NCBI GenBank assembly: GCA_046483985.1
Contig: JAWOCD010000110.1
Coordinates: forward strand, 1 to 64,000
Length of the DNA: 64,000 nt
From: Promethearchaeia archaeon
GTDB lineage: Archaea; Asgardarchaeota; Lokiarchaeia; Sigyniarchaeales; SOKP01
Reading direction: 5' to 3'
Below are positions 19,341 to 24,255 of this stretch, piece after piece. The notes beneath the pieces were generated by a model, which saw nothing but the letters and a program-made list of their open reading frames with translations, was not told where the DNA came from and did no database searches. Numbering within the stretch: position 1 is the first letter of the stretch; the number at the start of each line of letters is the position of its first letter. Position numbers and translations under genes: made by a program.

Positions 19341-20600
19341 TTATTTAAAGATCTCAACCATTTCTGGTGATTTCTTTATGCTTTTGATATACTCGAAGTA
19401 CTTTGACACATCATATCCGTATTTTTTTCCAATATCTAAAACATTTTGCAGAATTCGAAGCTTTCTCACACCTAATTTACAAGTTTTGAAGAATGATCGA
19501 AATAGCATAGAAAGCGGTAATACATTGTCGAGATTTTCCAAGGGTCGAAGAACAATTCCTTCTGGAGAGAATTTAAATAATTTTTCTGTTTCATAGATCA
19601 GTTCATCTTCCAGTTCGCCAATTTTTTCATATTTATAATATTCTTGGATTTTTTTAAAATGTTTTATCATAAATATAATTGTTTCGTTTATATCTCGCCC
19701 TAATTGCAAAACCTTCATGGTCTGGTCAAAACCGGGGATAATTTTGAGTAAGGGTTCGAAGTTCTGTACGCCAAATCGTTTAAGACTCTCGTGAAGCTCC
19801 CCGAAAAGTTCTGCTCGTTCTTTATCGCATGCAAGATAATTATATATGAGATAACGCCCTGTTTTTGTATCAAACAAATCCATTTTCTTGTCTAATTCCT
19901 GAAAGGGCAAGATTTTTACTTCAAAGTCAAAATGAATGAAATGTTCCTTCTCGATTTTCTTATTGTTAATCTCTAATAAACGAGCAGTTAGTGAATAGAT
20001 ATGGGTCTCTTTTGCCTTAATTTGGAACGAAACTGCCTTTGGCTTTTCAGGCGGAAGTTCTATTATAAAACCATTTCCTTTACTCTTACGCTGTTGGCTC
20101 GGATTCCTTGAAATATTCAAACTTACTTCCATTTTAATATGTTGAGCCCCCCGCTGAATTAACATTCCGGTTACTGGGAAATTTTGGTTCCGGATTCCAA
20201 TTGGGGGATAGTATAACTCGAAAAACCCTAATTCTAATTGTTGTTCGCCCATATAGCCAGAGAGATATATATTCGCTTTATTGACCAGTTCTTCGAATTC
20301 TGTCTTAAAAAGGGAAATTAAATTTTTTGCCTTTTTGGATATCTGCAGTTGTTGCGTCTCTTCCTCTTCTCTTTCGCTTTCTTCTTGAATTCGTAAATTA
20401 AACTCGAGACTTTCTTTTAATAATGAGATCCGCTTAAGAATTGTCCGTAATTTTTCTTGAAGTCCTTTTCGTTTCGCTCTAAATTCTTGTAGAGAAATAT
20501 TTGATTGTTTTAATTGTCGTTTCGACAGTTGAATCTTTTTTACAATTTCTTTAACTTTTGCTTTTAGCCGTTTTAATTCTTCGCTGGTAGATTCTGGAAT
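19341..20600 (-). CDS. Hypothetical protein (about 419 aa) with N-terminal coiled coil; probable ATT start, 116 codons upstream of the ORF-track ATG (20252)
   Basis: Frame stays open from 20252 to 20603 and encodes heptad-like IPESTSEELKRLKAKVKEIVKKIQLSKRQLKQ...; AGGTGA SD-like motif 7 nt before the ATT. Confidence 0.75.
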   Translation of the reverse strand: MPESTSEELKRLKAKVKEIVKKIQLSKRQLKQSNISLQEFRAKRKGLQEKLRTILKRISLLKESLEFNLRIQEESEREEEETQQLQISKKAKNLISLFKTEFEELVNKANIYLSGYMGEQQLELGFFELYYPPIGIRNQNFPVTGMLIQRGAQHIKMEVSLNISRNPSQQRKSKGNGFIIELPPEKPKAVSFQIKAKETHIYSLTARLLEINNKKIEKEHFIHFDFEVKILPFQELDKKMDLFDTKTGRYLIYNYLACDKERAELFGELHESLKRFGVQNFEPLLKIIPGFDQTMKVLQLGRDINETIIFMIKHFKKIQEYYKYEKIGELEDELIYETEKLFKFSPEGIVLRPLENLDNVLPLSMLFRSFFKTCKLGVRKLRILQNVLDIGKKYGYDVSKYFEYIKSIKKSPEMVEIFK

Positions 20601-20603
20601 AAA

Positions 20604-21653
20604 TTATTCACCTGATTCAAGTTGTTTTTTGACCATCTTCTCAAAACCAATCGAATTCGAGAATATGGGATCTTCGACTTTAATAATACGATCTAAATCT
20701 AAATCTCGTATTAAATTATGCTCGAGAATTAACATTTCAATCTCAGTCCAAAATAATTCCACCGCTTCACCAGTTATAATATAATATTCCACATCCGCTT
20801 CCAAGGGTAAACTATTTAGAACTTCTGAAAGATTATCTACGATATCATTGGCAATTTGCCGAATATAATGCTCTTTGACGTTTCCAATGTCATAATTTTT
20901 TCCCGCAAGAATCACTTGATCTTGTTTCTTTCTGATATTTCCTAAAATCGTATGAGGATTGACGATTTCCCCCGTCTGTTGCTGTAATGCTTGAGAAATT
21001 TTATTAGCTAAAACAAATAGAGAGGCATTTGTTAGATTAAGGGAAGCAGTTCGTATGATTTCCCCATTATATACTGTTAGAATCTCCGTTAATAAATCAA
21101 GCGAAATAACGACCGCGTCTAATGCAATCCCTTTTTCTAAGTTTGATACAATAGAATAGTAAGATCCATAACTCTGAGGCATGATGAACGCTTTTTTGAT
21201 GGTTTTCTCAACCTCGATAATCTCATTGGTTGCTTCGTTTTTAATTTTTATTTCACATTTTCCCTTAATTTTTGCACTTAATTCCTTCATACGCTTGACA
21301 CTGGTTGAGATCGGCACACCAATTCCAAGTATAATGTCGGACTCCTCTTTATCTACGATAAGAGGCAAGATCGATTTAATTATCTGAAAAATTTCATCAA
21401 TTTTTTCTAAATTTCCTTGGTCCAAAATAAATTGTTTTATTTCGCTCTGAGTCCGAGCCAACTCACCGATATAGAATTCCTCTTCGTTCTCTATGAGGAT
21501 TAAGTTATTTTCCCAACTTTTATCAGAGGTAAGCTCTCCAAAGCCTATAGGATCGCTGCTCCCAATTACATTGGGTATTCTGAACTGCTTCTCTTTGCTG
21601 GAAAACTTAATTTCGGATCCGATGTCAATTCCAATGCCAACTGTATTAGTCAT
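20604..21653 (-). CDS. ParM/StbA-like actin-fold protein, degenerate (pseudo-ATPase) paralog
   Basis: IGIDIGS, YIGELARTQSE, GVP and DPIFSNSIGF retained; phosphate-2 reads SLDLLTE and adenosine motif reads TGEA. Confidence 0.85.
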   Translation of the reverse strand: MTNTVGIGIDIGSEIKFSSKEKQFRIPNVIGSSDPIGFGELTSDKSWENNLILIENEEEFYIGELARTQSEIKQFILDQGNLEKIDEIFQIIKSILPLIVDKEESDIILGIGVPISTSVKRMKELSAKIKGKCEIKIKNEATNEIIEVEKTIKKAFIMPQSYGSYYSIVSNLEKGIALDAVVISLDLLTEILTVYNGEIIRTASLNLTNASLFVLANKISQALQQQTGEIVNPHTILGNIRKKQDQVILAGKNYDIGNVKEHYIRQIANDIVDNLSEVLNSLPLEADVEYYIITGEAVELFWTEIEMLILEHNLIRDLDLDRIIKVEDPIFSNSIGFEKMVKKQLESGE

Positions 21654-21761
21654 TTAATATTATCCCTAAAAATTCTGATACGCTAAAAAACTAAAAAATG
21701 AATAAATTATATTATAGTATTATAGTTAATAATAAAAATTAATTTTTAAGTTGAATAAAAT

Positions 21762-22784
21762 ATGAAAAACGTCGGAATTGACCTTGGAACATCTACGGTA
21801 AAGATCTCATGCGGAGATCAGCAGTTCTTAATCCCCTCAGTGATTGGTGAGCCGAATCCTGGGTGGACGGGTACTACTTTCGAGAAGGATCTCTCAAAAA
21901 ACCTCGTACTAATAGAAGGAAGAGATAAATATTATATTGGGGAATTAGCCCGAATGCAATCCGAAGTAAAAAGAGCGTTGGCAAGTGATGGACAAATGAA
22001 GTCGGCAGAAGAAACATTCCTCGCAATAAAAGCCGCACTCTCTTTATTATTAGAAAATGATAATGAAGATGTTAATATTGCCACGGGCGTACCAGTTGCA
22101 ACTCCGCTTGACTCCATGAAAAACCTCAGTAAGATGTTAAAGGGAAATTTAGAAATTTATGTAAAAAACGATGCAACCGATGAAACAAAAAGGCTAAATG
22201 TCAATGTAAATACATGCATGGTGCTCCCAGAGCCATACGGAACGTATTACAAGACTCTAAAAGACAGGGGGGAAGACACCGCAGTCGATACAGTAATAAT
22301 TGATATCGGCCATGGCAGTACAGACATTTTGACAATGTACCAAGGTAGACCCATGAGAACCGCAAGCGGTTCCATGCGGGAGGCCACAGATACCTTAACC
22401 AGTCGAATGGCAAAATCACTCCAAGATAAAACGGGATCAATTATAAAACCATTCGACTTGATGTCCACAATCAGAAAACAAAAAGAAACAGTAATGATTG
22501 GCGGTCAAACATATTCGATTAAGAAAATCAAGAATTTTTATGCAGATCAAATTTCAAAAGTTATGGTGGACGAAGTGATGCGTCTCATCTCTAATCTACC
22601 TCCGGATGCATTCGTTGAGTACTATATTATTTGCGGAGGAGGAGCCTACACCTTCGGAGATACCATTCGAGAAGCAATTATTGATAAAAAATTAGTTGCC
22701 TCTCCAGAAAATGTAGTCATTCCGGATGATCCAGTCTTAAGTAATGCAGTTGGGTTTGAATTGGTTGCAAATGCCAAATCTTAA
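21762..22784 (+). CDS. ParM/StbA-like actin-fold ATPase
   Basis: Phosphate-1 VGIDLGTSTVK, PEPYG, phosphate-2 IIDIGHGSTD, adenosine ICGGGA, DPVLSNAVGF. Confidence 0.92.
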   Translation: MKNVGIDLGTSTVKISCGDQQFLIPSVIGEPNPGWTGTTFEKDLSKNLVLIEGRDKYYIGELARMQSEVKRALASDGQMKSAEETFLAIKAALSLLLENDNEDVNIATGVPVATPLDSMKNLSKMLKGNLEIYVKNDATDETKRLNVNVNTCMVLPEPYGTYYKTLKDRGEDTAVDTVIIDIGHGSTDILTMYQGRPMRTASGSMREATDTLTSRMAKSLQDKTGSIIKPFDLMSTIRKQKETVMIGGQTYSIKKIKNFYADQISKVMVDEVMRLISNLPPDAFVEYYIICGGGAYTFGDTIREAIIDKKLVASPENVVIPDDPVLSNAVGFELVANAKS

Positions 22785-22965: not shown

Positions 22966-24255
22966 TTGAAAGTGGATGATAAAACTTCTAAAAGGGATAT
23001 CGAAGAATTAGAAAATACGGTTAAAGGTATTTTGGGTAAGGAGGGGAGTTCAAAAAAAGAAGGATCTTCAAAAAAAAATTCAGAAATTGGTTCGGAACTT
23101 TCAGAACTTGAGTCAATGGTAAAAGGGGCACTCACGGAACTAACTGATTTGGAAAGTAATCTTATTAATGTAATTAGTCCTTCACCAGATATGAACAATA
23201 AAAAAGAAGGCAACTATCTAATGGCAGTGCGAAGATTCCAAAATGCTATGAAAGCGGCGCTTATAGATGGCGCTAAGAAAAGGAATCTTGATACTTTTCA
23301 AGAAGGCTTTAATTTTTATGAAAACGCCCTCGAAATTATAGAATCCACTGGAAATAAAGCTGAACGAGATCAACTCAAATCGGAGTTTTCCAAACTTTTA
23401 ATGAAGATTATCTCCGAAGATAAAAATAGACGGGATCCGAAATTTATTCCCTTTCTTCAGAAATCGTGTATTAAACTAGCCGAGATTTATGAATCGTTTG
23501 GACAATATGATGCAGCCATAAAATTTCACGATAAAAATATTGAACTCTTTAAAAACAAGCCGTTGCAAGGAGACTTAGAACGGTTTCAAGTCATCGTGAA
23601 CTATCTTCTCTTAAAAAAAAAGTCCACGGCCAAAGACTATGTTACTCATCTCAAGTTCAAACCCATTAAAAAACTCACCGAACAACTACTAAATTCAATA
23701 AATACAGGTAATTTAACTAACCTTGAAGGTATAAAAACTCGAATAGAAGTCTTGGGAACACAAAAAGGCTTGAAAACTCGAAGTGCATTAAATTTAATTG
23801 ACCGCCTTTCAGAACAATATGAGACACCGAAACCAGATGCAGCTGAACAAATTAAAGTTCCCGAAGGTGCACAAAACCTCTCAAACGAGAAAATTAATGC
23901 CATTAAAAATTCACTTTCTAAAGGAATAGAACAACTAAAGACGACTCATCCCGATCTTAAAATTTCCGCCAATATTGATACAGAATCCATCGTGAATGAA
24001 TTGAAAACCGCGATATCCTCTGAAATTAGTAAAGAGATTAAAACGCTGTCAAGCTCTATTGTCTCTCAAATTGTGAAAAAAATGCCTACCAGCTCATCCT
24101 CATCCTCAAGCTCAAGAGCTCCCGCATCCCGCTCTGCAGGTAATATCTCGGATGAGGCAGCTCCCGAGATTGATGTAGTTGAGGGGGGAGAGAAACAGAA
24201 ACCTAAACGTCCAAAACTGGATGATATGCTTGATAATGTAATCGTCTCAGAGTAA
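22966..24255 (+). CDS. Hypothetical alpha-helical (TPR/SNAP-like) protein with Ser-rich linker and short C-terminal motif
   Basis: Helical repeats (LAEIYESFGQYDAAIKFH), SSSSSSSS tract, terminal KPKRPKLDDMLDNVIVSE. Confidence 0.75.
   Translation: MKVDDKTSKRDIEELENTVKGILGKEGSSKKEGSSKKNSEIGSELSELESMVKGALTELTDLESNLINVISPSPDMNNKKEGNYLMAVRRFQNAMKAALIDGAKKRNLDTFQEGFNFYENALEIIESTGNKAERDQLKSEFSKLLMKIISEDKNRRDPKFIPFLQKSCIKLAEIYESFGQYDAAIKFHDKNIELFKNKPLQGDLERFQVIVNYLLLKKKSTAKDYVTHLKFKPIKKLTEQLLNSINTGNLTNLEGIKTRIEVLGTQKGLKTRSALNLIDRLSEQYETPKPDAAEQIKVPEGAQNLSNEKINAIKNSLSKGIEQLKTTHPDLKISANIDTESIVNELKTAISSEISKEIKTLSSSIVSQIVKKMPTSSSSSSSSRAPASRSAGNISDEAAPEIDVVEGGEKQKPKRPKLDDMLDNVIVSE

Follow-up and report, generated by a model that had tools for sequence, protein, structure and literature searches.

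The window analyzed here, a stretch of 64,000 nucleotides from a Promethearchaeia archaeon (contig 17 of an assembly of 4.06 Mb with 35% G+C), carries a pair of divergently transcribed genes, termed A and B, that code for actin-fold proteins of the ParM/Alp/Ta0583 type. A retains the canonical nucleotide-site motifs, whereas in B both phosphate hairpins and the adenosine motif have been replaced by a different and strongly conserved sequence. The explanation that best accommodates the patterns described below, and to which we would give somewhat better than even weight, is that B is a functional, selectively maintained paralog of an Asgard-wide chromosomal ParM-like actin, represented by A, and serves as a fixed-state subunit in a four-gene module with the order C<-B<->A->D.

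Replacement of the nucleotide-site motifs in B

An earlier note, made from the letters of the window, had described B as an intact, full-length actin paralog. The open reading frame (ORF) indeed runs from an ATG start through 20604-21653 and codes for 349 residues against 340 in the neighbor, to which it is related as a paralog (BLASTP: 36% identity over 334 columns, E 3e-78), with long non-catalytic blocks that are identical in the two, e.g., YIGELARxQSExK and SNAxGFE. The family has to be named differently: B is an actin-fold protein of the ParM/Alp/Ta0583 type, neither a eukaryote-type actin nor a Lokiactin. Both B and A exceed the Pfam cutoffs for the Ta0583-type combination of ALP_N and MreB-like_C, with B scoring 42.7 bits for the former (PF17989, cutoff 26.3) and 28.6 bits for the latter (PF21522, cutoff 27.8). 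The Pfam Actin model PF00022 (cutoff 27 bits) has no match in B and matches only a partial stretch of A at a subthreshold 22.9 bits, and the NCBIfam ParM equivalog PRK13917 (cutoff 417 bits) likewise has no match in B and scores 51 bits in A. The AlphaFold2 (AF2) model of B, with a predicted local distance difference test score (pLDDT) of 89.7 and a predicted TM-score of 0.88, displays a complete four-subdomain actin fold. Its best Foldseek matches are pCBH ParM (E 6.5e-20), Ta0583, the chromosomal Dh-cParM1 and CorM, with TMq values of 0.71–0.76 to ParM, Ta0583 and CorM, and the sole matches in a sequence-profile search of the PDB are the ParMs that also top the Foldseek list. The closest homologs of B carry the labels Promethearchaeia or Promethearchaeota, i.e., Loki-type Asgard archaea.

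The four motif changes reported in the earlier note, namely those in phosphate-1, from PEP to PQS, in phosphate-2 and from GGGA to GEAV, were all recovered when the alignment and coordinates were checked (Table 1). Measured against the ASKHA signatures, B departs from phosphate-1 (D-x-G-[ST]-x-x-x-K, the Ser/Thr being absent from the consensus of its clade), from phosphate-2 (D-x-G-x-G-[ST]-T-D, in place of which all B orthologs have a loop of the SLDL-LTE type) and from the G-G-G of the adenosine motif, which reads GEA or, in the Hel-type forms, GEG. From a set of 5.8 billion proteins, homolog searches retrieved 63 relatives of B and 168 of A, and the four motifs were tabulated over 170. About 50 of these proteins, 45–89% identical to B and confined to Loki-/Hel-type Asgard archaea (Promethearchaeota, Lokiarchaeota or Helarchaeota where the entries carry a name), are of the B type and uniformly show DIG-GxIK, [IV][ST]LD[LY]-LTE[IL] and GE[AG]. 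Since the same replacements occur in every full-length ortholog found, they are not due to chance, and the possibility raised in the earlier note that orthologs might retain the canonical motifs finds no instance among them. In contrast, the approximately 115 A-type proteins in the table show DLGTS[TS]xK, PEPYG, D[IV]GHG[ST]TD and GGG throughout; DxGxG-T is kept by these and by every more distant ParM-like relative examined, and GGG by all non-B relatives examined except P0064 and P0191 (GDG), P0203 and P0231. In a separate search of 1.8 billion representative proteins the family proved compact, with only 12 matches at E values of 1e-30 or better, followed by a sharp drop to ordinary ParM-like proteins.

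The change from PEP to PQS has to be set apart from the other three and was rejected as evidence of inactivation. Most B orthologs have PE[SA]YG (PES or PEA) and thus keep the Glu, with PQS found in six tabulated homologs (P0001, which is B itself, P0003, P0004, P0008, P0024 and P0025). Across the broader ParM-like family, PQP outnumbers PEP and is common among distant, active-looking relatives, and PQS therefore says nothing on activity; the earlier note had itself cautioned that a Gln at the catalytic position is not inactivating on its own.

The remaining motifs had been called "selectively eroded," a description that does not hold. Within the B clade, L185, D186, T189, E190, G295 and E296 are invariant, and the mean column entropy is 0.48 over the phosphate-1 hairpin and 0.45 over the phosphate-2 hairpin as against 1.20 over the whole protein; only 2.9% and 0.6%, respectively, of equally long windows of B are as conserved. 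As the replaced segments rank among the most conserved of the protein, the pocket, judged from the orthologs, is one replaced by new constrained sequence rather than one that drifted. The same constraint is apparent at the level of the gene. Between B and its ortholog in locus L027 (89% identical), dN amounts to 0.066 and dS is saturated, at 1 or above, which places omega (dN/dS) at no more than about 0.04–0.07; such values were obtained for B against L027 and L028 only and are upper bounds, and for A, C and D saturation of the synonymous sites leaves no exact dN/dS. The supposition that the gene is maintained thus stands, and by these sequence comparisons B is a genuine gene that looks expressed and is subject to strong purifying selection.

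In principle, B might instead be a decaying duplicate, reflecting either erosion confined to the strain or an incipient pseudogene. Two observations lean this way: first, B evolves faster than its neighbor, as A is the better conserved of the two in every one of the 45 pairs formed from the ten genomes with both (the pairs are not independent), with a median B:A ratio of differences of 1.54; second, some orthologs have no canonical start codon. Against it stand the intact reading frame in all 14 loci examined, the recurrence of the same replacements across orthologs that are 45–89% identical, the low omega and the location of the replaced loops in the most conserved parts of the protein. In the genome comparison, B is nonetheless more conserved than D. 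By comparison of the orthologs, decay is excluded, and we give it practically no weight. As for the start codons, the 14 loci have ATG in 6 (including the window), GTG or TTG in 4, and only ATT or ATC in 4. In the last group (L033, L034 and L004, which belong to one genus, and L040), only ATT/ATC and no ATG/GTG/TTG lies upstream of GIDIG, and the database entries for these orthologs are N-terminally truncated to 261–315 residues.

The phylogeny offers a glimpse of how the pocket might have been rebuilt. In a quick IQ-TREE analysis of 78 sequences, B is monophyletic, with a Shimodaira–Hasegawa-like approximate likelihood ratio test (SH-aLRT) support of 99, and is sister (support 97) to a small clade, X, comprising P0064, P0191 and genes of loci L031, L047 and L049. 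Clade X has full-length hairpins (DFGSSLIK and DIGFGSAE), GDG in place of GGG and YGP in place of PEP, and shares with B an ELFW after the adenosine motif. B and X together branch off at the base of the Asgard A radiation, where the tree is unresolved, and the split of B into Hel-type and Loki-type forms mirrors that of the linked A genes. This suggests a stepwise change of the motifs with X as an apparent intermediate, though X is long-branched and its placement comes from a quick tree. The duplication giving rise to B would then predate the Hel-/Loki-type split, and an acidic residue would have entered the adenosine motif first, with both hairpins being shortened later on the B stem. Thus, in the common ancestor of the B-bearing Loki-/Hel-type lineages, each phosphate hairpin would have lost one residue along with the Gly, Ser/Thr and Asp of its signature, what became an invariant Glu would have taken the place of the second Gly of GGG, and the rebuilt pocket would subsequently have been frozen.

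As to the consequences, the β- and γ-phosphates are said, in a description attributed to Bork, Sander and Valencia (1992), to be held in all actin-fold ATPases by the backbone amides of both Gly-rich hairpins, with the nucleotide lying against the GGG turn. Because the phosphates and the nucleotide contact precisely these elements, B, with both hairpins shortened, their glycines lost and an invariant Glu in the GGG turn, should no longer bind ATP in the canonical way. The strict conservation of the new pocket residues points to a different present function: they may latch the two lobes in one conformation or, less likely, hold another ligand. B would thus act without the binding and hydrolysis of ATP typical of the actin-fold ATPases, presumably as a fixed-state structural subunit.

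A competing possibility is that B is still an ATPase or nucleotide switch with a non-canonical pocket, in which the shifted Asp186, Glu190 and Glu296 take over the metal and phosphate contacts. This would be compatible with pocket residues that are more conserved than the rest of B and with the retention of D10, G12, K16 and, in most orthologs, the connect-1 Glu. It sits poorly with the loss of a residue and of the phosphate-holding glycines from both hairpins and with a Glu at the very glycine position of the adenosine motif that contacts the nucleotide; moreover, the combination of motifs in B was seen in no other relative from the searches. We regard this alternative as improbable, without dismissing it as we do decay.

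Table 1. Features of the locus in the window and of the sister clade X (window positions, except where a locus is named)
Feature	Position	Strand	Description
Gene B (P0001)	20604..21653	-	ATG start, 349 residues; ParM/Ta0583-type actin-fold protein with rebuilt nucleotide-site motifs (ORF and translation, Pfam, AF2, Foldseek)
Phosphate-1 hairpin of B	21606..21632	-	GIDIG-SEIK against GIDLGTSTVK in A; one residue shorter; D10, G12 and K16 kept
PQS for PEP, connect-1 region of B	21171..21179	-	MPQSYG against LPEPYG in A; lineage-specific variant
Phosphate-2 hairpin of B	21081..21110	-	VISLDL-LTEI against IIDIGHGSTDI in A; first Asp replaced by Ser, both Gly lost, one residue shorter
Adenosine motif of B	20760..20780	-	IITGEAV against IICGGGA in A
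Gene A (P0002)	21762..22784	+	340 residues; canonical ParM-like paralog with DLGTSTVK, PEP, DIGHGSTD and GGG intact
B-A divergent intergenic region	21654..21761	.	108 bp, AT-rich; presumed shared promoter region
Gene C (C2 form)	19341..20600	-	419 residues, 3 nt after the B stop; N-terminal coiled coil, predicted UEV/RWD-like domain, lineage-specific C-terminal extension
Gene D	22966..24255	+	429 residues, downstream of A; helical, Ser-rich linker, C-terminal peptide RPKLDDMLDNVIVSE at 24199-24252
Clade X genes	L031:5001-6113, L047:4237-5352, L049:3700-4809		Unlinked to A, C or D

The four-gene locus and the partners of the two actins

The window and 10 other distinct loci (L014, L015/L016, L027, L028, L032-L037 and L040) share the order C<-B<->A->D, and across loci the stop of B and the start of C overlap or lie 3–25 nt apart. 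In the window, the C gene (form C2) begins with an ATT at 20598-20600, 3 nt after the TAA of B and 7 nt after an AGGTGA. Its first 116 codons contain no ATG, GTG or TTG, and standard ORF calling gives a form of 303 residues that starts with ATG; the frame is, nevertheless, open from the stop codon of B. The full extent of 419 residues is adopted here because the close relatives L027 and L028 start at the same codon, with ATG and TTG, respectively, three bases after the B stop.

An N-terminal coiled coil is common to the C proteins, as is a domain marked by an invariant YP..P signature; a Pfam scan of C gave nothing above the cutoff. The nature of this domain was approached through C1, a shorter paralog in the same genome, whose AF2 model has a pLDDT of 82. 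With VIA-align, its residues 99-205 fall in the UBC/UEV/RWD superfold, the best match being the UEV-like domain of VPS37A (Z 10.4, root-mean-square deviation 2.7, 101 aligned residues), followed by an E2 (Z 9.7), the RWD domain of GCN2 (Z 9.3) and the UEV domain of Tsg101 (Z 9.1), whereas a Foldseek comparison of the model with the PDB gave no match at E ≤ 0.001. No conserved cysteine was found in the C proteins and, as modeled, the UEV/RWD-like domain is non-catalytic. The order of a coiled-coil hairpin, a UEV/RWD/UBC-like domain and a helical C-terminus is seen in C1 and in the C genes of L014, L016, L017 and L032-L037. C1 itself lies away from the actin pair, on contig 29 (G000:C29:72543-73367; L019:1486-2334:-), with C2 remaining behind B; in L014, C1 and C2 occur in tandem. 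In a set of 400 Asgard species genomes, all 10 that bear B have full-length C1, and only one other, a sister genome, has it; elsewhere only the UEV-like domain recurs, within unrelated proteins of 550–600 residues. These are present in most genomes of the window's family, independently of the actin pair (G000:C96:7905-8195, G000:C50:20270-20722 and about 80 others), and the UEV/RWD-like domain looks like a large domain family.

A complex of B with C2 was predicted using a custom alignment for each protein, and the benchmark counts are hence only approximate. Three runs gave a median interaction prediction score from aligned errors (ipSAE) of 0.51, whereas the highest value among three controls was 0.02. 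In the benchmark, 58 of 80 solved complexes and 2 of 110 mismatched pairs attain the ipSAE mark; only 7 of the 80 solved complexes, together with both mismatches, do so at an ipSAE of 0.60 or less. At least 37% of contacts are common to the runs, and the partner pLDDT is at least 49. The prediction belongs to the weak class and mildly raises the odds that B binds C. The increase is only mild because translational coupling and co-occurrence already gave a fair prior.

On the other side of the pair, D shows only weak TPR matches in Pfam, with nothing above the cutoff, and a SNAP/TPR lead in the Atlas comparison (score 0.82, a lead only). Its C-terminus, RPKLDDMLD[NS][IV]IV[SC]E, is present in every locus. 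In Thor-type loci (L030:6064-6723:+ and L051:4256-4987:-), a protein of 219–244 residues overlaps the end of A and bears a D-like tail, ERPSLDDAIGSIIVVE, with the pattern ERPSLDDAIG[SA]I[IV]VVE; since the tail recurs after A in these loci, it would be older than the duplication that gave rise to B. A ribbon-helix-helix (RHH)/ParR domain was considered for these short adaptors and rejected, as Pfam had no match and the resemblance of the segment NIVITL...EWVRDSxRLKMRIERG to RHH was seen by eye only. ParR with ParM and arcadin-2 with crenactin are systems of tail-in-groove adaptors. D resembles these adaptors in its short conserved amphipathic C-terminal peptide, flexible linker and gene position right after A, and differs from ParR in having a TPR/SNAP-like body rather than a DNA-binding RHH; C, the partner of B, has no such tail. 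By this analogy, the C-terminal peptide of D is likely an A-binding element and would address A as ParR does ParM and arcadin-2 does crenactin. A common origin of C and D as parts of a duplicated two-gene module was also considered and rejected: hhalign gives a probability of 1.3%, and a coiled-coil resemblance alone remains.

The element TATTATAG occurs twice in tandem at 21710-21727, midway along the B-A intergenic region, and is possibly a TATA or promoter element of one or both genes. A repeat scan for iterated, centromere-like (parC) repeats near the pair gave only short two-copy matches, and Rfam had no match to a structured RNA in the window.

Distribution of the module and the role of B

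A search of the 400 genomes with P0001, calling B at an identity of at least 48%, placed the ParM-like family in 68 and B in 10. B is borne by the window's own genome, by 5 of the 134 others in its family and by members of three further families within the class. Every one of the 10 has A as well, and in 8 the two genes are head-to-head neighbors. In several other families, nearly every genome has A without B (29 of 31, 12 of 12, each with three copies, 6 of 7, and 5 of 5), and A as a family ranges across Loki-, Hel-, Heimdall-, Thor-, Sigyn- and Njord-type Asgard archaea. Within the family of the window, the pair is patchy and accessory—one genus has the A/B module in 1 of 54 genomes—with a pattern suggestive of frequent loss or lateral transfer, and is kept as a unit where it is kept. 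The genomes of a further family (f18) have three A-type paralogs, one of which (L042:5237-6307:-, G123:C84) shows PVC for PEP and TN for TD with loops that are otherwise intact; by its sequence, this is another independent change at the catalytic positions.

B is read as a fixed-state subunit because it is always accompanied by the genes of its module, and it most likely acts together with C on the filament system of A. In the mechanism that we prefer, A would be the nucleotide-driven filament former of the module. B, made together with C and probably bound to it, would dock with its partner on A, whether by capping the filament, by nucleating it or by being interspersed among its protomers, and thereby modulate or anchor the A filaments with no nucleotide cycling of its own. 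In spirit, this would agree with the earlier note, which proposed a maintained pseudo-ATPase acting as seed, cap or alternating subunit.

The main rival holds that B and C constitute a self-sufficient system of their own, e.g., a nucleotide-independent scaffold or filament decorated by C, which is co-regulated with or derived from A-D and merely co-inherited with it, with no contact between A and B. Such a separation would be in keeping with B having a translationally coupled partner of its own and A a different one, with the lack of relationship between C and D, with the unlinked positions of B and A in some genomes and with a weakly supported predicted complex that is between B and C. It accounts less well for the fact that in 10 of 10 genomes B is accompanied by A, head-to-head in 8, for the gain and loss of the four genes together within the family, and for the long blocks outside the catalytic site that B retains in identical form to A. 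We consider it a serious contender, albeit a distinctly less probable one than a B-C pair acting on A.

Several points weigh against B as a fixed-state subunit acting on A. The complex score, besides being of the weak class, concerns C rather than A. The contact between B and A would follow from linkage and paralogy, and divergent neighbors can share regulation alone. B and A are non-adjacent in two genomes, lying on different contigs in G166 and about 1.2 kb apart in G163, and B in L017 is located away from A. The charged cleft residues that are conserved, namely D10, K16, the connect-1 Glu (in most orthologs), D186, E190 and E296, may constitute a non-canonical ligand or metal site. Further, the presence of the module in only 5 of the 134 genomes of the window's own family indicates that its function is not a core one, and the co-occurrence counts overstate independence since the module-bearing genomes are related.

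Parallels with known systems and significance

The nearest comparison is with the ParM/Alp proteins (pCBH ParM, 6ixw/6izr; Dh-cParM1, 8x1i; Ta0583, 2fsj; CorM, 9rmi; PMC12270681), which have the same fold and Pfam domains as B and are its best profile and structural matches; the cParMs are also chromosomal like B. These proteins keep the phosphate-1, phosphate-2 and adenosine motifs and form ATP- or GTP-driven polymers, whereas B lacks all three motifs. A ParMRC type II partition locus has an adjacent small RHH ParR and parC repeats, whereas the B locus has in these places C, with its UEV/RWD-like domain, and the TPR-like D; domain scans of the neighbors, including Pfam, and the repeat scan found neither an RHH ParR gene nor parC-like repeats beside B. 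Because it fails every ATPase signature of the family and is found without ParR and parC, B is, by its sequence and neighborhood, not to be filed as a ParM partition ATPase.

Parallels might also be struck with actin-fold paralogs that have come to act as companions of an active member. The nuclear Arps of eukaryotes (Arp7/Arp9 of SWI/SNF-RSC and Arp4-actin) are non-cycling subunits that pair with another actin-fold protein. Like B, they are paralogs kept as structural subunits beside a canonical member with the nucleotide cycle reduced or lost, as would be the case in B. Unlike B, they belong to the PF00022 actin/Arp branch rather than to ParM/Alp, and the analogy is one of function only, an A-B heterodimer being hypothetical. 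In magnetotactic bacteria, MamK and MamK-like are two paralogous actins acting together, one with an altered ATPase site; MamK-like has point changes in an otherwise canonical pocket, whereas B has both hairpins shortened, GGG lost and a dedicated partner gene. In the tRNA-modification enzyme complex, TsaB (YeaZ) is a degenerate ASKHA-fold paralog and an obligate partner of the active paralog TsaD. This pair does not belong to a cytoskeletal family, and its sequence relation to B is at the superfamily level only.

Taken further, the locus might represent an Asgard cytoskeletal module in which a nucleotide-free B, held by C, caps, nucleates or alternates with an ATP-driven A addressed by D. This would be an archaeal, independently arisen case of the division of labor seen with the Arps or α/β-tubulin, and would have emerged from a ParMR-type cassette through the exchange of its DNA-binding adaptor for protein-binding ones. 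We offer this larger picture tentatively, and consider it rather unlikely to hold in its entirety.

Full-text searching of the literature brought up no account of an Asgard ParM-like pair or pseudo-ATPase, nor of a ParM-type actin family spread over Asgard lineages. The Lokiarchaeum ossiferum paper counts only four actin homologs, of the actin/Arp type, and uses ParM solely as a reference group. More generally, one reason for studying Asgard archaea is what they may reveal about the origins of the eukaryotic cytoskeleton, and attention has so far been on Lokiactin, Arps and tubulins. The present module is an accessory one, found in 10 of the 400 species genomes searched. Within this compass, one subclade of Asgard ParM-type actins has a conserved pair made up of a canonical paralog and a rebuilt, putatively inactive one, each with its own partner, and the pair, being small and soluble-looking, would be a tractable system in vitro. 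If B is truly nucleotide-free, it would be a natural and well-sampled instance of an actin-fold ATPase turned structural subunit, and clade X would allow the order of the steps to be read.

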